Shown one piece after another: positions 1,127 through 19,225 of a stretch of DNA of 20,518 nt. Positions within the stretch are counted from its first letter, which is position 1. Each line of letters opens with the position of its first letter. The notes beneath the pieces are model-generated. The model was not told the DNA's origin, made no database searches, and saw nothing but the letters and a program-made list of their open reading frames with translations. Position numbers and translations under genes: made by a program. The stretch comes from a virus. Where the stretch lies: the UHGV virus genome UHGV-1338495; one strand, given 5' to 3'.

Positions 1127-2199
1127 GTGATTTCTCCTACCGTCAGCAGCTCACTGTCTCCCGCCTGAACTGACGTCAGCGGACTGCGCACTTCAAAATC
1201 CTCCAGATTTTTCACCCCTGCCACCGCCCGCCAGAAAGACGACGGCAGAACCAGACCGCCGGGCCGGGATTCGTTATACAACAGGTCGGTCAGCGCCTGT
1301 TTTACGGCCGCCTGATTCTCCGGTGTTTTCGGGATGATCCTGATGCTGAAGGGCACCGGCTTATTGGTCAGTTTAAACACGGTCACCGTCGGCCCCAGAG
1401 GCTGTCCGACAGGCTGGCCGGTCGCCGGATCATCATGACTGCGGATATAATCCGCCACCCGCTGAACATCACCGTCACCGGGGAAAATGTCCGGGTTATT
1501 ATCCTGAACAAACGTTACCCCCACGCTGCCCGCCTGCGGCCATTCCGGGCGGCACCATGCCCGCGTCACGCCCGGCACTTCACGCGCCCAGCGTTCAAAA
1601 TCATACTGCGTGCCGCCGGACGGTGGATTCTGCACCCGGAAAACCAGACGGGAAAGCAGCTCCGGCACGGTTTCCACATCCGCACCACCGGTGATCCCCG
1701 TTCCGGTCACCGTGGCCGTCTGGTTGATCCCCGCCTGCGGTGTGATAAATGTCAGTTTTGTCCCTGCCGGGGCATTCCCCGCACGACCGGCACTTTCGGC
1801 TTCCACACTGACATTCAGCGTACCGGCCTTACCGGTCAGGGAGGTGGTGATACGGTAAACCACGCCATCACTTCGCTGGAGAAGCACACCTTCCTTGATC
1901 CCCGCATCCGTGGTCAGCATCAGCTGAACCGGCCCGTCCCCCCGAGAGGCAGGCTTACGCATGACGCCCCAGAATGCACAGTGTTTCAGCAGTTCGGCTT
2001 CATCGGCTTCGGTCGGGATGATCTGACGCGCAATCCAGGCCAGATGCTCATGCTCCTGAGCAGATAACCCTGCCTGAGCGTAAGCAATGGCATTCAGGGT
2101 GGTTTCATTCACACCCGGCTGCGAGCCGGGCAGGCGCTGGCTGATATCCTGCTGTGTCTGCGTGATTAACTGTGCCAGCGGTAAAGGCTGATAAGGCAT
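1117..2199 (-). CDS. Baseplate J-like protein (Mu gp47-like)
   Basis: 360-aa ORF. Its ATG overlaps the upstream stop (TAATG at 2197-2201). Size and position after the spike/gp46 genes match baseplate wedge protein J. Confidence 0.7.
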   Translation of the reverse strand: MPYQPLPLAQLITQTQQDISQRLPGSQPGVNETTLNAIAYAQAGLSAQEHEHLAWIARQIIPTEADEAELLKHCAFWGVMRKPASRGDGPVQLMLTTDAGIKEGVLLQRSDGVVYRITTSLTGKAGTLNVSVEAESAGRAGNAPAGTKLTFITPQAGINQTATVTGTGITGGADVETVPELLSRLVFRVQNPPSGGTQYDFERWAREVPGVTRAWCRPEWPQAGSVGVTFVQDNNPDIFPGDGDVQRVADYIRSHDDPATGQPVGQPLGPTVTVFKLTNKPVPFSIRIIPKTPENQAAVKQALTDLLYNESRPGGLVLPSSFWRAVAGVKNLEDFEVRSPLTSVQAGDSELLTVGEITWL

Positions 2200-2636
2200 T
2201 ACTCCCCCTTAAGATCAGCATAAAAAATCATGGGCCTCACTGAACCATCAGGCAGGGTTATGCGCACCGAAAGCGCCAGCCGCGCGTGTCCCACACGTTC
2301 TGCATGACAGACCACGGATGACGCCACGCCATCCTGACTGAGCCAGCCCAGCGCCTCATCCGCGTAAGCACGGGCACGGCTTATCACCGAGGCCAGCGTT
2401 TTTTCCCGGCTGAGAAGCCACAGACGGGAGCCAATGGGGCGCGGGCGAAAACTGTCTCCCCACCATCCCCGGCGGTCGCGCGTACCGTCAGGGATTTCAT
2501 CCGATGCCAGCGCCCGGCGGTCAGTAAACAGCGAAATCAGAACGGCCGTCAGCAGACTGTCATCCGTCAGCAGGTCGGCACCGTTCAGTTGCAGCGAACC
2601 GCATCCCTGATCCCACACAATTGCAATATCAGCCAT
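2199..2636 (-). CDS. Baseplate protein, Mu gp46-like
   Basis: The track ORF runs 2199-2780, but I place the start at the internal ATG 2636-2634, which is preceded by AGGAG about 9 nt upstream and gives about 145 aa (MADIAIVWDQGCGSL...). This start overlaps the stop of the spike gene by 8 nt, a typical arrangement. Confidence 0.55.
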   Translation of the reverse strand: MADIAIVWDQGCGSLQLNGADLLTDDSLLTAVLISLFTDRRALASDEIPDGTRDRRGWWGDSFRPRPIGSRLWLLSREKTLASVISRARAYADEALGWLSQDGVASSVVCHAERVGHARLALSVRITLPDGSVRPMIFYADLKGE

Positions 2637-3243
2637 TCTCCGGCACTCCTGTCTTACTGCCTTCGCCGTTATCATGATGCACATGGCCGGAATACCGTAT
2701 CCCTGCAATAACGGCATCCGACATTGTGAACAGTCCCTGAGATTTCCCCGTACCCTCAAGCGCGAAATTACCCTTAACATGCAGGTTCTTATCCACCGTC
2801 ACATTGCCCGTAAAGGTGGCTTCCGGCGTATCCACCCGCATCCCCTCGTCGGCGTAAATCTCCAGCATTTTGCATGTCACAATAATGCGGCCATCCTTTG
2901 TTAACCGTATCCGGTGCCCCTCATGGTGATACACCCCCGTATCTCCGGCTGTGAGTCCGGTCGGGCGGCTGCGCCGGTCTTCCACCACAAGCACCACAGT
3001 CTGATCCCGCTGTCCGCCCAGACAGGCAAAAAAGGTTTCCGCACCCGGCAGGGGAACGCTGATCTGCCCGTACTGCTGGGGACGCTCCACATCATCAAAG
3101 GTTTCGCCGTCCATGCCGGTGAGCTGCACATTCTGCATTTTCAGTTCGTCATGTGTGCCGGTCAGAACGCCCCGGCCAAACAACAGGCGAATACCGCGCG
3201 TTACCGGGGCAATCAGGCGGCTGAACACTTCATCATTCATCAA
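2629..3243 (-). CDS. Baseplate assembly protein V / central spike (Mu gp45-like)
   Basis: 204-aa ORF between the hub (gpD-like) gene and the gp46-like gene. The C-terminus is Gly/His-rich (…SGHVHHDNGEGSKTG), consistent with a spike-tip domain. Confidence 0.65.
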   Translation of the reverse strand: MMNDEVFSRLIAPVTRGIRLLFGRGVLTGTHDELKMQNVQLTGMDGETFDDVERPQQYGQISVPLPGAETFFACLGGQRDQTVVLVVEDRRSRPTGLTAGDTGVYHHEGHRIRLTKDGRIIVTCKMLEIYADEGMRVDTPEATFTGNVTVDKNLHVKGNFALEGTGKSQGLFTMSDAVIAGIRYSGHVHHDNGEGSKTGVPENG

Positions 3244-4357
3244 AGCTGATCCCCTGTTTTTTCATCTGCTGGCGAATAAAGGCATCAACATCGTCACCGG
3301 AACCACCCCGGCCCTTACTGTCCGGCTCTGCCGGAACGATAAAGCCGTCACGCGGTGCCAGTACCAGCCGGGTGACTTCCCCGTTATGCTCATCAAGTAA
3401 AAACTCCACCTGACAGACCAGCAGTTCAGTCTGTTCTATACCGAAACGCAGGGCTGAAACACCGGTCAGCAGATTGACATCCCATAACCGGCCATCATCC
3501 CGGAACCAGCCACGCACGGTGGCAGAAAACCGTTCTGAACGGGCAATCGCACGGCGCATTTCACGCAGGGCACGCTGCCGTGCACCGGTGATGTCTGTCT
3601 GTTGATCGGCGAGGATGATTTTCGGCCGGTAGCGGCCGATCTGCTCATCACTGATGACGCCCACAGGTGCTGCCAGACGGGCGGCGGATTCGCTGTCTCC
3701 CCGTTTGCCACCACCGCGCCCGTGTCCCCGGACACGGTATTCGCTGTATCGTCCTCGCCAGTCCGTGTTGTAATCGGCATCAAGCAGGTTATCTCCCAGC
3801 ACCAGTCTGTCCGTCTGCTGGCTTCCTGCCTGGGTGAACACCAGATCGCCGTCAGCATTACTGGTCACCAGCACCCCGCGATGCCGGGCAGCACGGGTCA
3901 GCGCATCCGCCACGGTTTCTGAGTTTTCCAGCGTAAAAGAGCTGAAGGGGCGTGCAGCCGTGTCGTCGTTAACCTGCCAGCGCACGGCTATCCCGAAGGG
4001 CGCACATAAATCTGCGGCAATCTGTGCCAGCGTCCGGTTGCGCCACTGGCTGCCGGGATGGATGGCGGCACAGTCCACCAGGTCGCCGGTTTTATCCCGA
4101 CCGCTGATGCTGATCTGATGACGGGTTGCACTGATCCGCTGACTGACCTGATCCAGCCAGCCACTGATGACCGTCTGCCCGTTAATTCTGAGCGTCAGGG
4201 ACTGACCGGTCCGCAGGGCTGAGGGGATGCGCTCACCGGGCAGCATCAGCCCCAGTTCAAACGACCCGGCCAGATGCTCCAGCGAGCGACGGACGCTGAC
4301 CGTCAGCCAGCCGGAAAAAATACTGCCGCCGATATACAGTTCAATCCTGCTGCTCAC
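3233..4357 (-). CDS. Tail/baseplate hub protein, late-control gene D family (Mu P-like)
   Basis: 374-aa ORF starting MSSRIELYIGGSIFSGWLTVSVRRS..., following the DNA circulation gene as in Mu and P2. Confidence 0.7.
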   Translation of the reverse strand: MSSRIELYIGGSIFSGWLTVSVRRSLEHLAGSFELGLMLPGERIPSALRTGQSLTLRINGQTVISGWLDQVSQRISATRHQISISGRDKTGDLVDCAAIHPGSQWRNRTLAQIAADLCAPFGIAVRWQVNDDTAARPFSSFTLENSETVADALTRAARHRGVLVTSNADGDLVFTQAGSQQTDRLVLGDNLLDADYNTDWRGRYSEYRVRGHGRGGGKRGDSESAARLAAPVGVISDEQIGRYRPKIILADQQTDITGARQRALREMRRAIARSERFSATVRGWFRDDGRLWDVNLLTGVSALRFGIEQTELLVCQVEFLLDEHNGEVTRLVLAPRDGFIVPAEPDSKGRGGSGDDVDAFIRQQMKKQGISFDE

Positions 4358-5699: not shown

Positions 5700-7743
5700 A
5701 GTTCCCTCCGTTCCAGACGTTCACATCCAGGCCATGCTGTGCGGTATCATCCACATCAATACTGCGCGCCCGCCAGCCTTCAGGGGCCACAAGCTCCACC
5801 CGTGCGGCGGTTTTCGCGGTGGCCTGTCCGCCGTTTTCGTCACTGCTGCCACGCAGTTTCTGCCAGGCCTGCGTCAGCCAGCCCCCCAGATAATCACCGA
5901 GATAGCTGCCCACCGTGGAACCAATGGCAACCCCGACCGGACCGGCAGCCGCCCCCAGCGCGCCACCGGCGATACTTCCGGCAAGAGAACCCACGGCACC
6001 GGCTTTATCGGCTGCACTGGCGCTGCTGTCCAGCAGTACAGGAGCCGCCATGGCACCGGCCCACAGGGCACCACCACCCAGCCGACCGGCACCACGGAAC
6101 AGCCCGGCAAAACGCCCCAGCCCCATGCGGTTTCCGGCCGCCGTTAGCAGACCACCGGCACGGCTCATCATACGACCGAAGAAGCCCTGTTTACCGGCAC
6201 TCTCCGCCAGTTGCTCACCGGCAGTCACGACGGTCGTGACACCCCGTCCACGTCCGGGGCCGCGTTTTTTACGGCCGCGCACGGTTTTGCCGTCACCGCT
6301 GACCACCACATCCCCGCCACCTGAGGCCAGGCCACCCGCAGGCCAGTTGGTGACCAGCACGGGCTGAACGGCAGCCGGATTTACCCCGGTAAGGAAATTC
6401 AGGAACCGGCCAGCGCGTCCGGGCTGCGTTCCCGGTACAGTGGTCTGCGGTTTGCGGAAGGGCGACGTCAGCACGGAGGTCATCGCCATGCCATAGCGTA
6501 AGGGGGTTGCGCCGAGACGTAATGCCCCCGTCCCTGCAAACCTGAGCACCTTCAGCGCACGGGAGGCGAGATACATATACATCAGGTACTTTGCGGCGGT
6601 CTGCGCACCCTGACCAATACGATCCAGCGCATCGCCATAACCGGCGTCGCGCAGTGCCTGAAGCGTTTCCCTGACTTTCTGAATGGCCCGGTAAAAGCCG
6701 GTCGCAGCATCTCTGGCATACTCAAATCCCTGATTCAGTGCTGAGGCCGTCTGTGTGGCCAGCTTATCCTGTAAGCCGCTTTTCTGTGCCGCATCGGCAT
6801 AATCCAGAAAGCCTTTCAGGCTCTTTTTCAGGCTGTCAAACGGTCCCTTCGCCATCACGTCACGGGCAAACTGATCCCAGACGTCACCCATCATGGACGT
6901 CATTCCCGTCCATGAGTTCATGGCGTTTTTCTGGGCACCTTTTGCCTGTTCGGCCATCACCTGAAATAACAGGCGAATGCTGTCCGGTCCCAGTTTTCCT
7001 TTCTCGCCTTTCTCACGGATGATCTTCTGGTTTACACCCAGCTTATCGGCCAGTAACTGGTAAACGTTAATCCCGTATCCGGTCAGAATATTGGCGTCCG
7101 CTGCCTGGATACTCTGGCGGGCAAACATCTGTTTGAGTTGCAGGGACGCACCCTGTGCCTCTGACAGTGACCAGCCGTGATAGCCGCCCTGATCCTGAAG
7201 CATGGTAATAAAGCGACGGGCTTCCCTGTCACTCATGCCAAACCCGCGACTGGAGGCGTATTCCTGCATAACCCCCGCCAGCCCCCAGGTGGTGTCTTTG
7301 GCGTTCTGTACCGCCCAGGCTTTCACTGCTTCCGTTTTTGCCTTATCGCCATGATTAATGGCGTTGAGACGCAGAATATAGTTCTCCATCTCTGCGGCCG
7401 GGCGGATAAAGGCTTTATTAAAACCGTAGACCGCAGCCCCTCCCGCCAGCATCCCGTAAAGGTTGCTTATCCGCCCGATGGTGCCGGTAATGCTGCCCTG
7501 CAGGCGGTCAAAATCTGACGTTACCGTGCGGATACTGCCACGAACACCGGCAAGCGTTCGCTGCATACGGGAGCCAACAAGCTCTGTTTCCTGACCGGCC
7601 CGGCGTGCTGCATTTCCAAGACCACCCAGCCCCGTCCTGCCGGAACGGGAGAATGCCCCCAGCTCCTGTGACCACTGGCGGGATTTGGCGGAAATATTGC
7701 CGAGTAAATCGACAATCAGGGAGGCTTTCAGGTTTTTTGCCAT
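5686..7743 (-). CDS. Tail tape measure protein
   Basis: 685-aa ORF, the largest in the window. It has a long predicted helical middle section and a Gly/Ala-rich hydrophobic C-terminal third, and sits between the chaperone and baseplate genes. Confidence 0.8.
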   Translation of the reverse strand: MAKNLKASLIVDLLGNISAKSRQWSQELGAFSRSGRTGLGGLGNAARRAGQETELVGSRMQRTLAGVRGSIRTVTSDFDRLQGSITGTIGRISNLYGMLAGGAAVYGFNKAFIRPAAEMENYILRLNAINHGDKAKTEAVKAWAVQNAKDTTWGLAGVMQEYASSRGFGMSDREARRFITMLQDQGGYHGWSLSEAQGASLQLKQMFARQSIQAADANILTGYGINVYQLLADKLGVNQKIIREKGEKGKLGPDSIRLLFQVMAEQAKGAQKNAMNSWTGMTSMMGDVWDQFARDVMAKGPFDSLKKSLKGFLDYADAAQKSGLQDKLATQTASALNQGFEYARDAATGFYRAIQKVRETLQALRDAGYGDALDRIGQGAQTAAKYLMYMYLASRALKVLRFAGTGALRLGATPLRYGMAMTSVLTSPFRKPQTTVPGTQPGRAGRFLNFLTGVNPAAVQPVLVTNWPAGGLASGGGDVVVSGDGKTVRGRKKRGPGRGRGVTTVVTAGEQLAESAGKQGFFGRMMSRAGGLLTAAGNRMGLGRFAGLFRGAGRLGGGALWAGAMAAPVLLDSSASAADKAGAVGSLAGSIAGGALGAAAGPVGVAIGSTVGSYLGDYLGGWLTQAWQKLRGSSDENGGQATAKTAARVELVAPEGWRARSIDVDDTAQHGLDVNVWNGGNYGLY

Positions 7744-13976: not shown

Positions 13977-14123
13977 TCCGGCAGCATAAGCCGGTGTTTT
14001 TCGGGGCCGGTTTTGCGGGACTTCAGAAAGTGCTGACAGGGGAAAAATGAGAAAGGCGCTTCACGCAGATTTTAAAGCCCGTTAAATACAGGTTAGAAAA
14101 TCACGACACGCGCCTGAAGGGGG

Positions 14124-14148
14124 TAAGGTAATACGTTTGCATACCTTA
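14124..14148. promoter_or_regulatory. Perfect 7-bp inverted repeat with 11-bp spacer (TAAGGTA-N11-TACCTTA) in the G-I intergenic region
   Basis: Seen directly in the sequence, immediately after the G stop codon and about 150 nt upstream of the I start. The intergenic region is 177 bp. Confidence 0.3.
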
Positions 14149-14153
14149 AACCA

Positions 14154-14627
14154 TTACGGCGTTTCTGTGGCCTTTTTAAAGCGTTTTCTGATTTCGTCCA
14201 TGATCTCCTGTTCTGCCACCTGATCAAAGCCCATATACGGACGTGCGCCAATGGCCGCCGGTCCCGGTGGCATACCAGGCAGGCCACCCCACTGATGAAT
14301 GGCCGCATAAGGTTCATTTGATCCAATCAGCGCCCAGGTATCGCCATAATCCGTGGTCAGGCGGCGGGCCAGATCGCCGTTCAGTGTCAGGATTTTGCCG
14401 GGCGTGTATCCCTTACGGGTACGCCACTTGCGGTAAGGATCTGACCAGTCATGCCAGCGTTCGCCGTCCGGCTCTTTTTCCTGTTCAAACGCCATTTCTG
14501 ACGATGACAGAAGACTCTCCGCCACACTGCGGGCCAGGTCTTTTCCGCCGCCCACAAACTGAAGCCGGGCAAACACCCGCTGGAGACGCGTAACGTCAAC
14601 AACGACAGCGGCATCAATGGATGACAT
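14154..14627 (-). CDS. Virion morphogenesis protein, Mu G-like
   Basis: 157-aa ORF between the MuF and I genes, preceded by GGAGG. Size and position match Mu G. Confidence 0.65.
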   Translation of the reverse strand: MSSIDAAVVVDVTRLQRVFARLQFVGGGKDLARSVAESLLSSSEMAFEQEKEPDGERWHDWSDPYRKWRTRKGYTPGKILTLNGDLARRLTTDYGDTWALIGSNEPYAAIHQWGGLPGMPPGPAAIGARPYMGFDQVAEQEIMDEIRKRFKKATETP

Positions 14628-14663
14628 ATTGCCTCCGCATAAAGGATGAATATAAAATAAACA

Positions 14664-14748
14664 GGCGGTCAGTGTACGCTTAACTGGTAAAGTCGGTGCC
14701 TGCCTCCGGGTGGATCATGTATGCGGGTTCGACCCCCGCCACTGACCG
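14664..14748. other. Structured intergenic element between the MuF and G genes (T-arm-like hairpin enclosed by a 9-bp long-range pairing)
   Basis: Plus strand has CGGTCAGTG … GCGGG-TTCGACC-CCCGC-CACTGACCG: the hairpin resembles a tRNA T-arm and the flanking arms are exact reverse complements. Coordinates are approximate (±1-2). Confidence 0.3.
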
Positions 14749-15747
14749 TTAATCAATTTGTCCTTCCAGCACCTCAAGCATTCCGCCCCGGATATCCGAT
14801 TTCAGCTTATCCATATTGATAACCCGGTAAGCATTCACAATCACATCCAGTTTGTCGGGCTGACGTTTCAGACTGTACGGTGCATTAACGGCAATCTGCA
14901 CACTGCCATCCTTATTTTCCACGATATACATCAGATTTTTGTGCCGTTTGTCCCACAGCACCGCTTTTGGCTTTGCCAGCATTGCCGGTAAGCGCCCGAA
15001 GTCCTCTGGCATCAGGGCGATGCCGTCATTCTGATGTTTCACACTGTCTGCATGGAGCACATTTTTACCGCTCATCGCCAGCAGGCGGGCCGGTGGCGTT
15101 CCCGTCCGGCTTTCCACTGCCTGCGCAATGCTTTCAGTCATAAAGCCCAGCGTGCGGATATCGTTACCACCTCGCCGGGTCTGCATGATGTTTTTTGCCC
15201 AGATGCGGAACGCCAGCTGCCGCTCCGGGCTGTTGTTCATCTCCTGAACCACCATTTCCCGTAACGCCGGGCTTTTCACCTCGATCAGTTTGCGGATCAG
15301 CGCCTGGTCTGTGCCGAACGCTGCCGAGCCGGGGTTATATGACCAGCCCACATCCGGTGTCATGGTTCTGGTGCCATCTGAATATGTGGTCACCGGCATT
15401 TCTCTGACTTCTCCGGTCTGTTTATCCACGCCAGCCTCAACATTGCGGGTGGAGAGATGATCCTCACCGGATGAAACGGATAACCCCATTGCATCCAGAC
15501 GAGCCTGAGACAATGGCCGCACACGGCAGCGGCAGTTCCAGCCATTAGGTGGGTAGTGTGTTTTCCAGAACGGATCGTCATAGCGGAATACCAGACCGTT
15601 AAGGGCGGAATGCGACGGGCGGGTACGGCTGTCCATGACCGCCACATACTGCCAGAACGGATGCGTGTCCGTGTTGTTCATCATCTGCGTGTAACGCCCG
15701 GCATTGTAAGCCACACGGGTGTTCACGTTGTAAATCAGCGCCAGACG
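14749..15747 (-). CDS. Head morphogenesis protein, MuF family (Mu gp30-like); 5' end lost in the N gap
   Basis: The track fuses this with the portal across the N run. The part after the gap contains the MuF signature region …RVAYNAGRYTQMMNNTDTHPFWQYVAVMDSRTRPSHSALNGLVFRYDDPFWKTHYPPNGWNCRCRV…. Confidence 0.8.
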   Translation of the reverse strand, partial: RLALIYNVNTRVAYNAGRYTQMMNNTDTHPFWQYVAVMDSRTRPSHSALNGLVFRYDDPFWKTHYPPNGWNCRCRVRPLSQARLDAMGLSVSSGEDHLSTRNVEAGVDKQTGEVREMPVTTYSDGTRTMTPDVGWSYNPGSAAFGTDQALIRKLIEVKSPALREMVVQEMNNSPERQLAFRIWAKNIMQTRRGGNDIRTLGFMTESIAQAVESRTGTPPARLLAMSGKNVLHADSVKHQNDGIALMPEDFGRLPAMLAKPKAVLWDKRHKNLMYIVENKDGSVQIAVNAPYSLKRQPDKLDVIVNAYRVINMDKLKSDIRGGMLEVLEGQID

Positions 15748-15847
15748 NNNNNNNNNNNNNNNNNNNNNNNNNNNNNNNNNNNNNNNNNNNNNNNNNNNNN
15801 NNNNNNNNNNNNNNNNNNNNNNNNNNNNNNNNNNNNNNNNNNNNNNN
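15748..15847. other. Assembly gap (run of exactly 100 N)
   Basis: 100 consecutive N. It falls between the portal and MuF coding regions, both of which are incomplete. Confidence 0.95.
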
Positions 15848-16857
15848 CGTAAATCAGAATCCCTGATTTCCCGGCGCACCTCGTTATGCACCTCACCCAG
15901 CGAGCGCGCGCCTTTGTCTCCGGCTTCCGTGGTCAGCGTGCCGCCGAGTATTGCTTTGGAGATGGAACGCTCACCCCACGAAATCATGGTTTCAAACGGA
16001 TCGGCCTGACCGTTCGCTGCCGCCTGAAACTCCAGCGACATCCCGGCCGGGATGATCCCGCCTGTACGTCGCCCGATATCCATCACCGCCCGCATCAGGG
16101 CACTTTTCTGCTCCGGTGTTGCCCCGGACGGGTATTTCCCGACCTTCATTGGCAGGCCGTACACCTCCAGAAATTCCGCCAGATCGCGCACGGAATAGTT
16201 TTTGAAAATGAACGGCCAGATAAGCGTTCTGACAAGCCCCGTCGCACCACCGTAGCCGGTGCGTGAACGCGACTGATGCACTATCCAGCCAAAGGGCTGA
16301 AACGCCACCCCGGCATGGCTGCCGTCACGCAGCCGCAGTTCGCTCAAATCATCCGGGTTAAGGCAGAAATGCCCGCTGTCACGCCAGCGGATGGCGCGGA
16401 TGATGTGCATTTTACCGAGCATCCCGTGCTCAATTTCCATGCAGGAATAGCCCTTCAGGATGGCATCCGTGGCGTCAAACAGCATGGCATCAAACCAGTC
16501 TGCGGAATGCAGATATTCGTCGAGCATTTCCGCGTCCTTTTTCTCATTCGCGCTGGCGTTCGGTGGCGGCTCAATGCTCCATGGCACCCCCTGAATGGCA
16601 AGACGTCGCTTGCCCAGCTCCGCAAAAAGGTGGGTGTCCTTTTCTTCAATGTCAGCCGCCAGATCGGACTGGGCAATCAGATCGCCACGTTCAGCCCCGC
16701 GAAGGCACTGCGCCGCCCGGTTCGGGGTGATACCCGAGGCGGGATGCTCAACATAACGGCTGGCAATCTGCGGAATATCCAGCGCGGTACTTTGCATCTC
16801 CGGGTCAAAGGAGAAAGGTTTTCCGTCAAGATCAATTATGCGTCCCACTACCAGCAC
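15848..16857 (-). CDS. Portal protein, Mu gp29-like (DUF935-type); 3' end lost in the N gap
   Basis: About 336 aa are visible. GTG start at 16857-16855 overlaps the 3' end of the terminase gene. The N-terminal region (…GDLIAQSDLAADIEEKDTHLFAELGKRR…) matches my memory of Mu-type portals. Confidence 0.7.
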
Positions 16858-18385
16858 CCCCGATCAAATTCATGATATGCCTCATCGTCATCACGATAAC
16901 CGCCCTCCATTGCCCGCGACCGCTCCGGCAGCGCCTGACAGGCTGATTCATCCAGGATGAATCCCTCCATGTATGACGCCCGGTTTGCCATACAGAGTGC
17001 CACGGCAAAATCACCATGGCGGCGGGCGTTCGCAGCCGTTGCGTTCTGGTCCTTCGTGCGCCCCTTGTCGATTTGCGGGATACCATTCACCACCTTCACA
17101 TGGCGCAAATCATCAAGCGTGGTCTGATGGCGGGCGACGAGGATATTCTGATCTTCAAACTCGGCTTTCAGTTTTGGCATCCACTCGCCGTACCACTTCG
17201 GCGACAACATCACGCAGTCGATGATGTCCGGGCCAAAGGCCAGCAGTGCGGCTTCTGCCAGATAGCCGCCGTTACCGGTGGCGTCGAACGCCGCACCGAC
17301 CAGCGCCGGAACGCGGGTCAGGATGTACATCATCACCTGTTCCTGCTGGGCATACGGCAGGTTGCGCAGCTCCACGCGAAACACCTCGCGCTTTGCCAGG
17401 AGTTCGGTGATTTCCAGCAGCACAAAGCAGGACAGGTCACCGGTGCGGGCAAAGTCTTCCCCGAAGCTGAAGCGGGAACGGGGATTTAATTTCTCTAAAA
17501 GCGGTTTTAAATGTTCTTCACACCAGGTTAAAACTTCCGATTCACGCAGCCATGCGGCACGGCTGATGAAGTCGTCCGGGGCTTCAAACGTCAGAATCGG
17601 GATGTCACGAATCATCGCCATTTCAATAAGCGCGTGAGGAATATAGGCACCGCCGGATTTTTTCGGGATACAGCCGTATTCCTCGTCGGCATCCTCACGG
17701 GTCGGGGCGTTTTTGTAGAGATCATCACGCCATTTCTGCTCGCTTTCCGGTGACCATTCCTGATCGGTGACGTAACAGATACGACGGTACAGCCCGTCCG
17801 CAATGGCATCATCCAGGGTTATGCGGTGGACGCTGTAATCCTTGCGCCCCTCGCGGGCTTCCTGAATGTACTGATTAAACAGATTATCGACGCCGTTATG
17901 CGTGGAGATAATACGCACGCGCGCGCCCCACATAGTGAGCGCCATTGCCGCCTTGAGAAGCTCATCCAGTGACTCGTGGAACGCGGCTTCATCAATCACC
18001 ACATCCCCCTGAAGACCGCGCAGGTTTGACGGACGGGAAGACAATGCCTGAATTTTGAATCCACTGTTCGGAAAGCGGATCATGTAGGTCAGAATTTCTT
18101 CTTTTTTATCCCGATCCCAGAANNNNNNNNNNNNNNNNNNNNNNNNNNNNNNNNNNNNNNNNNNNNNNNNNNNNNNNNNNNNNNNNNNNNNNNNNNNNNN
18201 NNNNNNNNNNNNNNNNNNNNNNCAAACCAGCGGGCCTGATAATCCAGAAACACCGGCATATCACCGGGCAAATCAAGGCTGTCCGGCACATCCACGCCCA
18301 GCAGGGCTTTTTCACCGGACAGATCAATTTTGCGGGGAGGTGTCATTTGTATCAGTGAAGGAGACTTTTCTTTGGCTTTGTTCAT
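16848..18385 (-). CDS. Terminase large subunit, Mu gp28-like; interrupted by a 100-N gap
   Basis: ATG at 18385-18383 opens a 54-aa stretch that runs into the gap. On the other side the 411-aa track ORF frame stays open upstream into the Ns (…FWDRDKKEEILTYMIRFPNSG…). The two halves are in different apparent frames, as expected if the true gap length is not 100. Confidence 0.75.
18123..18222. other. Assembly gap (run of exactly 100 N)
   Basis: 100 consecutive N inside the terminase large subunit gene. Confidence 0.95.
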
Positions 18386-18633
18386 CAGGCTTTACCTGTC
18401 AGAATGCTTTTGATTCGGAACTCAAGCTCTTCAGTCATCACGTCCACGCCACTCAACTCATCAGTGACAGCCCCTGCCAGCAGCGAATGCAGTTGTTCCA
18501 GGGATATTTCCCCGGCAATGCTGAGTTCAGTCAACTCACGACACGCTTTTATGGTTTCAGGAGGTAACTGTGTTGCAAGACTGAATGCCTTCTGATGAGC
18601 ACTACTCATCAGTGAGCGGTTATCTGTTACCAC
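18385..18633 (-). CDS. Small protein sharing its C-terminal ~30 aa with the upstream gp27-like protein
   Basis: 82-aa ORF with GTG start preceded by AGGAGGTG. Its TGA stop overlaps the terminase ATG (TGATG). C-terminus …AVTDELSGVDVMTEELEFRIKSILTGKA. Confidence 0.5.
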   Translation of the reverse strand: MVTDNRSLMSSAHQKAFSLATQLPPETIKACRELTELSIAGEISLEQLHSLLAGAVTDELSGVDVMTEELEFRIKSILTGKA

Positions 18634-18643
18634 GATTCACCTC

Positions 18644-19225
18644 CTACGCCTTACCAAGCAGCATCTGCCTGATACGGAATTCTATCTGCTCGCTCATGCC
18701 ATCCACGCCGCGCAACTCGTCGGTGACGGCGTTCGCCATCTCTTCAGCAAATGCGGCCCGGATTTCTTTTTCACGCTTAATGCTGCGCTCGGCGGCACTT
18801 TCCGCACGCTGTGCCGACAGGAGGATGTCCTTAATAAGGCGCATATCCACATCGCTGTCGCTGTTCAGGGATTCGGTGGCGGCACGCAGACGGCGGTACA
18901 TCAGGGCACGGGACATCTCCAGAATCAGTGCCGTGGTTTCACCGGTCGGCTTATCCCCCAGTTCGGCCATCATGGCTTTTGTCTGCTCGCGTAAATCACG
19001 CAGATTACGGGCAATCAGCTCATTACGGGAGGCTTCCCGGCTGATGGCCGCCGGTGAAAGCTGCTGCTCTTCCGGCAGGCCTGCCTCACGGATCAGACGG
19101 TTGATTTCCTCGCGGATCTGGACCTGCGTCAGGCGTTTTTCACGCAGCATTTCCAGCAGCGGCTTACGGATGCTGTCGGGGAGCAAATCCACCTTGCGTA
19201 CACGGCCACGCGTCGGCTTATCCAT
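18644..19225 (-). CDS. Terminase small subunit candidate, Mu gp27-like (DUF3486-type)
   Basis: 193-aa ORF upstream of the terminase large subunit gene. The basic N-terminus (MDKPTRGRVRKVDLLPDSIRKPLLEMLREKRLTQVQI…) is typical of the family as I recall it. Confidence 0.55.
   Translation of the reverse strand: MDKPTRGRVRKVDLLPDSIRKPLLEMLREKRLTQVQIREEINRLIREAGLPEEQQLSPAAISREASRNELIARNLRDLREQTKAMMAELGDKPTGETTALILEMSRALMYRRLRAATESLNSDSDVDMRLIKDILLSAQRAESAAERSIKREKEIRAAFAEEMANAVTDELRGVDGMSEQIEFRIRQMLLGKA

Follow-up and report, generated by a model that had tools for sequence, protein, structure and literature searches.

The subject of this study is the spacer between two late genes of the Mu-like prophage genome UHGV-1338495. 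The whole stretch of DNA analysed, hereafter the window, comprises 20,518 nucleotides, and the spacer spans 121 bp (14628–14748), from the start codon of gene G (14627, minus strand) to the stop codon of a MuF-type open reading frame (ORF; 14749–14751, minus strand). We found that the plus strand of this spacer carries a complete tRNA-like gene, in which a capped hairpin takes the place of the anticodon arm. The element belongs to a family whose stems are maintained by compensatory changes, and in all likelihood it is a gene for a selected, tRNA-shaped RNA that does not decode. The features of the locus are as follows (residues of the RNA carry tRNA numbers).

14666–14748, plus strand: complete tRNA-like gene, a cloverleaf with a 9-bp terminal helix (90.9 bits with the family model R1 described below)
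14667–14674, plus strand: 5' strand of the acceptor helix, N-1 plus positions 1–7 (G GUCAGUG); seven of the eight pairs show compensatory changes across the family
14675–14677, plus strand: U8, A9 and an extra C (Rfam tRNA alignment)
14677–14695, plus strand: D arm, stem C GCUU with AAG(U)CG and loop AACUGGUA (Rfam alignment; the three inner pairs covary)
14696–14718, plus strand: hairpin of 23 nt in the place of the anticodon arm (Rfam alignment, fold and relatives)
14719–14722, plus strand: variable loop GUAU, in which U14722 is U48, the Levitt partner of A15 (NUAU is nearly invariant in the family)
14723–14739, plus strand: T arm GCGGG-UUCGACC-CCCGC (sequence and Rfam tRNA alignment)
14740–14748, plus strand: 3' strand of the acceptor helix (CACUGAC, C73, G74), directly followed by the stop of the MuF-type ORF on the other strand
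14749–16857, minus strand: ORF with MuF domains, an in-frame fusion of the N-terminal part of a portal protein with MuF (domain matches)
14154–14627, minus strand: gene G, virion morphogenesis (Pfam Phage_tail_S, E = 2.9e-34)

Anatomy of the element and comparison with tRNA

A sequence-only reading of this DNA had noticed a hairpin resembling a T arm and, flanking it, a segment that recurs upstream as its exact reverse complement. Both are present: the hairpin lies at 14723–14739, and CACTGACCG at 14740–14748 is the exact reverse complement of CGGTCAGTG at 14666–14674, with 65 nt between the two. C14666 pairs with G14748 as a ninth pair, and the terminal helix is 8–9 bp long (14666/14667–14674 with 14740–14748). 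The same reading could fit neither a D arm nor an anticodon arm. It was right about the latter, but a D arm does fit, its stem formed by 14677–14681 with 14690–14695 and its loop, AACUGGUA at 14682–14689, bearing A14, A15, G18, G19, U20 and A21. In the central hairpin, three basal pairs (G·U, U-A and G-C) and an internal loop lead to a 5-bp stem, which is capped by a C(UCCG)G tetraloop at 14705–14708; neither a 7-nt loop nor an anticodon was found in this arm (14696–14718). The discriminator is also unlike that of a tRNA, as C73 pairs with G-1 and G74 with C-2, and CCA is not encoded at the 3' end of the window copy.

The conclusion of the sequence-only reading that the element is tRNA-like yet not a canonical tRNA was borne out. 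In a sensitive local search, the Rfam tRNA model (RF00005) matched 14668–14747 on the plus strand with 31.0 bits, above the gathering score of 29 (E = 1.1e-4). The alignment fitted the acceptor, D and T arms and left the anticodon region, 24 nt compared with 18 in the model, unaligned. With default filters, Rfam gave no match on the whole window. No Rfam family besides tRNA matched at E <= 1, the other matches being sR55 (E 1.2) and STnc480 (E 6.4), both far under the family cut-offs; among eight further contigs bearing the family, only L044 matched the tRNA model at E <= 0.01. ARAGORN, another check that the sequence-only reading had named, called neither a tRNA nor a tmRNA in the window. The NCBI annotation pipeline PGAP labels 14668–14747 'tRNA-OTHER', without an isotype and on the strand opposite to the phage genes, in near-identical E. 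coli prophages. A 7-bp acceptor stem, a D arm with A14, G18, G19 and A21, and a T arm with a UUCRA loop and G53:C61 are all present in the window, whereas the arm of a decoding tRNA (5-bp stem and 7-nt loop with U33, anticodon and purine 37) is not. The element thus only just counts as a 'tRNA' by its Rfam score, and we do not file it as one, because the features of the anticodon arm and of the discriminator and CCA end fail.

Energy minimisation folds the spacer into a four-way cloverleaf.

Covariation and the invariant core

Diverged copies were gathered through exact-pattern scans of IMG/VR and of metagenomes, together with a scan of G homologs. A first MAFFT alignment misplaced gaps in the acceptor stem of three divergent members; a 16-sequence seed, from which the covariance model R1 was built, and model-based alignments were used instead, and the final alignment holds 46 distinct relatives. 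R1 scored the family at 48.8–91.5 bits, apart from a second copy on contig L133 (46.7 bits), and genuine phage tRNAs in the same loci at no more than 45 bits; it found a single copy in the window.

Over the 46 sequences, the predicted pairs are formed in 94.2% of the alignment cells, compared with 41–57% when the partners are slid by 1–3 columns, and compensatory changes on both sides occur in 16 of the 21 pairs. None of 500 shuffles reached the observed values. A plain MAFFT alignment, which is not fitted to the structure, gave nearly the same picture (94.3% paired; 39–55% in the slid controls). Covariation in related prophages, which the sequence-only reading had named as a check, is therefore there. 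Among the acceptor pairs that covary is the eighth, N-1:N73, which is GC in 17 members, AU in 9, UA in 9, GU in 2, UG in 1 and of another kind in 7; position 73 itself is variable (C in 20, U in 11, A in 11 and G in 3).

G7, U8, A9, A14, A15, G18, G19, U20 and A21 are invariant in the 46 distinct sequences, as are the NUAU variable loop (with U48), G49, U54, U55, C56, R57, A58, C66 and, in the T stem, G52, G53, C61 and C62, those of the variable loop and the T arm being invariant or nearly so. In tRNA, the elbow and core are held together by the contacts U8:A14, A15:U48, G18:U55, G19:C56, U54:A58 and G53:C61. Because the invariant residues are those that build this elbow and core, the RNA appears, from comparison of its sequences, to be selected to fold as an L.

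The central arm behaves in the opposite way. In the relatives it is a hairpin of 18–45 nt with unrelated sequence and loops of 3–14 nt, often UNCG (UCCG or UUCG) and in one member GUAA; only its three basal pairs are conserved, and these covary. No member of the family combines a 5-bp stem with a 7-nt loop in this place. ARAGORN rejects 18 of the 19 members at the MuF–G site, and its lone call is a forced tRNA-Lys made from a 7-bp stem with a UUU triloop.

Two variants of the T loop were seen. The copy in the prophage of E. coli O157:H7 PA20 (L155, ~6008–6088), which PGAP leaves unannotated, carries G57A (UUCAACC), and a group of IMG/VR contigs (L038, 12632–12712) carries A58C (UUCGCCC). A58 is a universally conserved tRNA residue, and the A58C copies may be inactive.

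Strand and transcription signals

The wobble pairs tell the two strands apart. On the plus strand, G·U or U·G fills 41 cells of the alignment and A·C or C·A only 10; pairing amounts to 92.3% on the plus strand and 85.9% on the complement. In 34 of the 46 sequences, the central arm starts with a basal G·U pair, which would be an A·C mismatch if read on the other strand. Moreover, the T-loop and D-loop motifs are tRNA motifs on the plus strand only. A promoter scan of that strand gave two hexamers upstream of the element:

14629–14634, plus strand: -35 hexamer TTGCCT of a predicted promoter, overlapping the ribosome-binding site of G (GGAGGCAA) on the other strand
14653–14658, plus strand: -10 hexamer TAAAAT of the same predicted promoter, ending 8 nt before position -1

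This predicted sigma-70-type promoter, TTGCCT-N18-TAAAAT, matches the consensus at 9 of 12 positions. Because of the distance between the -10 box and position -1, the transcript should start no more than ~1–4 nt away from the 5' end of the terminal helix. In the other E. coli-type copies, TTGCCY precedes TAAAAT by 17–18 nt. All single-copy members examined have a -10-like hexamer (TAAAAT, TATACT, TATATT, TAGGAT or TATGCT) that ends 4–13 nt upstream, and in the relatives it comes with TTGCCY 17–18 nt further up or as an extended -10 (TGn), in flanks that are otherwise unrelated.

At the other end, the copies of Leminorella are directly followed by a G+C-rich hairpin with a T-rich tail, which resembles an intrinsic terminator in the plus-strand orientation. 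No plus-strand terminator was found after the element in the window. Because of the G·U excess, the loop motifs, the upstream -10 boxes and the Leminorella terminator, the RNA appears to be a transcription unit of its own on the plus strand, convergent with the late operon, rather than a feature of the late mRNA. The sequence that follows the tRNA-like gene in Leminorella grimontii (L006, 8867–8895; also L027 and L037) is AACGCCCCGCACTGCGGGGCGTTGTTGGTT; in this lineage, only six of the acceptor pairs are clean, and AA overhangs at the 5' end.

Distribution and genomic position

The 1.2-kb MuF–G region occurs in 230 of 5,426 complete E. coli genomes, and the 93-nt element was found in 173 E. 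coli genomes. The only named phages with the MuF–G region are two Stx phages that carry an inserted Mu-like phage. Mu, D108 and SfMu match only within G, at ~70% identity, and in Mu gp30 and G overlap, which leaves no spacer. The element therefore lies between genes that are adjacent in related phages, the position by which a 'moron' is recognised.

Among the best 80 G-homolog loci in IMG/VR, 22 have the element directly upstream of G, always on the opposite strand, and the remaining 58 gave no match; the same antisense placement by G was seen in L043, L046, L006, L044, L132 and L129. Carriers include phages whose G is only 30–38% identical to that of the window, whereas the G of Mu, which lacks the element, is 54% identical to it. 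Judging from these sequences, the element is either old and was lost in the Mu lineage, or has been moving between phages at the MuF–G junction. In species-representative genomes, the gapped D-arm/T-arm pattern gave no match and the T-arm pattern hit Leminorella grimontii alone; the family is therefore rare among species representatives.

Copies were also found away from this junction, and in arrays. An island of ~8.2 kb with an integrase, inserted in mdtP of E. coli STEC17-183 (L154, 10646–13501, and L002, 1–6310; NZ_CP075652.1, ~2238440–2246870), ends in three tandem tRNA-like copies, none of which is antisense to any gene. Its genes are ash, an Icd-like gene, DUF4222, RepA helicase, SSB, PerC and Mor, with none for structural proteins, and it is possibly a satellite of Mu-like phages. 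Metagenome contigs contain similar arrays; across the island and L181, the arrays hold 2–3 copies. In L181, three tRNA-like genes stand in a row upstream of G (2126–2434, minus strand); at least two of them, the first and the third, have a -10 box of their own (TATGAT or TATAAT) in front, and ARAGORN calls one copy tRNA-Lys(UUU), the arm of which is a 7-bp stem with a UUU triloop.

PGAP annotates the island copy at L002 5997–6078 as tRNA-Tyr. We rejected this copy as a real tRNA-Tyr, since its GUA lies in a GUAC tetraloop on a 6-bp stem, and the label is very probably a misannotation. We also rejected the array as the attachment site of the island, as the two ends of the island have no repeats in common except AAAAAGGCATAC motifs, which lie near both ends and ~160 nt from the array.

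A variant in L040, L047 and L103 is located elsewhere in the Mu-like late region, again antisense. In L047, another Mu-like prophage, it has a 14-bp terminal helix (2293–2367) and is part of an A+T-rich insert downstream of the major head gene. A DUF2971 ORF (2584–3765), which lies 217 nt downstream of it on the same strand, matches the PADLOC candidate defence family PDC-S31 (E = 1.6e-27).

Proposed role and alternative explanations

The sequences bear out the fold of the RNA, its family and strand, its synteny and a predicted promoter; its expression, its processing and its part as a decoy or competitor are inferred. In the model we prefer, the element is an accessory, moron-type gene of a Mu-like prophage. 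Its product, a small RNA in which the L-shaped core of a tRNA is complete, would be transcribed from its own sigma-70-type promoter opposite to the late genes. Because the anticodon arm is replaced by an inert capped hairpin, this RNA would be unable to decode. It would instead act in trans through its shape, as is suggested by the variable sequence at both tips of the L and the invariant elbow and core. The shape of tRNA is read by RNase P, 3' trimming and CCA-adding enzymes, TrmA and TruB, the ribosome, EF-Tu and tRNA-directed toxins or defence enzymes. The RNA would be handled by tRNA-binding proteins of this sort, for example the maturation enzymes (RNase P and those of 3' trimming and CCA addition) or a toxin or defence enzyme directed at tRNA, and its most likely role would be to compete for or titrate a tRNA-binding factor while leaving translation undisturbed. 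A protein-binding site, which the sequence-only reading had listed as a candidate, would in the sense of an RNA–protein interaction agree with the reading that we prefer.

As a whole, the statement that this is an accessory tRNA-shaped RNA gene acting as a mimic in trans stands, in our judgement, evenly between true and false; the mechanism by itself, mimic or decoy action in trans, is a tentative proposal and a doubtful one. The multi-copy arrays, which could provide dose, the moron-like position and the candidate defence neighbour of one variant are consistent with the mimic model without proving it. A more specific version, which we consider rather unlikely, holds that Mu-like phages and the possible satellite island carry this family as decoys for a tRNA-directed enzyme. 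The target would be, for example, an abortive-infection or toxin enzyme that recognises the elbow or acceptor end of tRNA; the decoy would protect the tRNA pool of the host without touching translation, and the arrays would raise its dose.

Several observations weigh against the trans-acting model. No obvious tRNA-handling enzyme is encoded in the window. The prophage in the window looks defective, and its copy of the tRNA-like gene may no longer be relevant to a phage. The promoter is a consensus match, and the scan that gave one such match in the window gives a mean of 0.8 in shuffled sequence. Alignments based on a covariance model are biased in favour of the structure that was modelled. 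The spacer does not fold more stably than its shuffles (z = -0.63 on the plus and -0.47 on the minus strand), and since its stability is unremarkable, the case rests on homology and covariation, not on energy. Furthermore, the mature RNA may not end as a tRNA does: CCA is missing from the gene, N73 is paired with N-1, and 32 of 45 members form a pair at -2:74. Finally, the strict antisense placement at the MuF–G junction would also suit a role in cis.

Such a role would be that of an antisense regulator, or of transcriptional interference, at the MuF–G junction, the tRNA shape merely stabilising the RNA; pairing with the late mRNA would create a substrate for RNase III, or read-through would be blocked in the lysogen. 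The placement agrees with this: the element is antisense to late genes at the same junction in all 22 loci found through G homologs and in L043, L046, L006 and L132, and the L047 variant is antisense to late genes at its other location. Moreover, the -35 box overlaps the ribosome-binding site of G, the 3' end abuts the MuF stop, and transcripts that meet no plus-strand terminator in the window may extend antisense into MuF. We nevertheless regard the explanation as unlikely. The island copies are antisense to no gene, the Leminorella copy would terminate right after the tRNA-like part, and an antisense role leaves the invariant tertiary core unexplained; in addition, most of the RNA is engaged in helices and in the contact between the D and T loops, and the window-type tetraloop offers no surface for pairing. 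The sequence-only reading had placed the function on the opposite strand, where the complement would lie in the late mRNA between the MuF stop and the ribosome-binding site of G and serve as an element of processing or stability; a part in translational coupling belongs to the same explanation. The complement does fold, as a mirror cloverleaf, Watson–Crick covariation is neutral with respect to strand, and the element fills the MuF–G junction exactly. The strand analysis does not support this idea, which is very improbable: the ratio of G·U to A·C cells, the basal G·U pair and the invariant loops all favour the plus strand, promoters are predicted on that strand, and neither the island arrays nor the L047 copy lies within a late mRNA in the orientation that it requires.

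There are two further explanations. The RNA could be an aminoacylatable carrier, which would be trimmed, provided with CCA and charged by a synthetase that does not need the anticodon, and would then feed a non-ribosomal reaction or sequester the synthetase or EF-Tu. For the window copy this would be HisRS, by way of G-1:C73. That pair is the main histidine identity element for E. coli HisRS and functions even in minihelices, the D arm GCUUAAYNGGUAAAG is common to many phage tRNA-His genes, and the acceptor/T-arm half is intact. However, position 73 is not conserved and covaries with position -1 as in any ordinary pair, the pairing being kept and the identity not; CCA is not encoded, the helix often reaches -2:74, and no transferase gene lies nearby. 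Alanine identity was rejected, as 3:70 is never G·U. We thus find a carrier quite improbable. The remaining explanation dispenses with RNA function and sees in the element a decaying tRNA pseudogene or a DNA-level site, such as an attachment remnant, a recombination hotspot or a topological site. The sequence-only reading had thought of a tRNA-derived relic, and ARAGORN calls no tRNA, PGAP assigns no isotype, the prophage in the window is degraded and T-loop changes occur (G57A in O157:H7 PA20, A58C in the L038 group). Against this, the 46 distinct sequences keep the core residues and compensate changes in 16 of the 21 stem pairs, although they come from phages whose G is only 30–58% identical; G57A retains a purine, and a purine is what tRNAs require at position 57. 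We give the relic and its DNA-level variants hardly any credence. An attachment-site remnant of a host tRNA was rejected in particular: the element resembles no chromosomal tRNA gene of E. coli and is thus no duplicate of an attachment site of the host. Phages of the Mu type insert by transposition, not by integration at tRNA genes. An equivalent of the central gyrase site of Mu, suggested by the position of the junction near the genome centre, was set aside because it would leave the conserved RNA core and the copies elsewhere unexplained.

Relation to known RNAs and significance

The element shares the acceptor, D and T arms, the tertiary core and the 4-nt variable loop with canonical phage tRNAs (RF00005), its D and T arms being close to those of real phage tRNAs that the same scans turned up; unlike these, it has no anticodon arm or CCA and possesses a -1:73 pair and an extra C after A9. 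Its nearest architectural analogues are mascRNA and MEN-beta of mammals, cloverleaves with an intact elbow and acceptor/T domain and a stunted, non-decoding anticodon arm, which RNase P and RNase Z release from long nuclear transcripts and which are given CCA but are not aminoacylated. By contrast, the element has a predicted promoter of its own at its 5' end, belongs to a bacterial virus and bears no sequence relationship to them. Biologically, the nearest cases are the 'tRNA-Other' pseudo-tRNA of Bacillus cereus and a set of small phage RNAs, namely RNAs C and D of T4, CI of P4 and c4 of P1 (Rfam C4). The first is likewise tRNA-shaped and labelled by pipelines as a tRNA of undetermined type. 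It has a role outside decoding, but it is chromosomal and keeps its anticodon arm, and the element is unrelated to it in sequence and context. The phage RNAs are small and stable and use tRNA features for maturation by the host. CI and c4 are regulators expressed from prophages, whose exposed loops pair with targets and which have no D-loop/T-loop elbow; unlike them, the element has no Rfam C4 match, and its window-type hairpin has no pairing loop. tmRNA and YrlA also mimic the acceptor/T-arm/elbow half of tRNA and replace the anticodon half. tmRNA has G3·U70 and an mRNA module, and YrlA ends at the anticodon side and has a Ro-binding stem; with the element, in contrast, ARAGORN finds no tmRNA and Rfam gives no match to either. 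A likeness of position rather than of product exists with the anti-CRISPR operons of Mu-like phages of Pseudomonas, which are small, self-promoted accessory units in the head-gene block beside G. These encode proteins, lie between G and the protease gene and run in the same direction as the late genes, and any anti-defence role for the element is a conjecture.

Full-text literature searches gave no published description of this tRNA-like family. Its members are already flagged by pipelines as 'tRNA-OTHER' or are missed, and the family is otherwise uncharacterised. Only few and scattered examples are known of tRNA-shaped RNAs without a decoding role, and phage RNAs have been studied far less than phage proteins. 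The present family is well delimited, has strong comparative support and a predicted promoter, and occupies a fixed address in prophages that are common in pathogenic E. coli. If it does titrate a tRNA-binding enzyme, an RNA mimic would join the tools of phage–host conflict and would reveal what parts of a tRNA are enough for it to be recognised in vivo. If the decoy version holds, the RNA would represent a hitherto undescribed kind of counter-defence or lysogenic-conversion factor, one based on RNA. Even with a modest function, the family merits a covariance model of its own, which would end its annotation as tRNA genes.

Other tRNA-like sequences without an ARAGORN call were seen in viral contigs (L055, ~6487–6566; L053, 7835–7905; L105, 5847–5992). 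In L055, the anticodon position is occupied by a 4-nt loop on a 5-bp stem. Look-alikes of tRNA that do not decode may thus be commoner across phages.

State of the prophage in the window

The fusion ORF upstream of G encodes 702 aa, with Portal_Mu at residues 65–336. The intact copy in E. coli O157:H7 PA20 is ~0.8 kb longer, having 906 bp where the window has ~100 bp (15747–15848), and the deletion fuses the N-terminal part of the portal protein in frame to MuF. The terminase region (18122–18648) is rearranged too and split into ORFs of 411, 98 and 82 aa. On the far side of G, a 177-bp intergenic region (13977–14153) separates it from the protease/scaffold gene I; in Mu, the central strong gyrase site lies in the corresponding region (annotation at 17879 of NC_000929).

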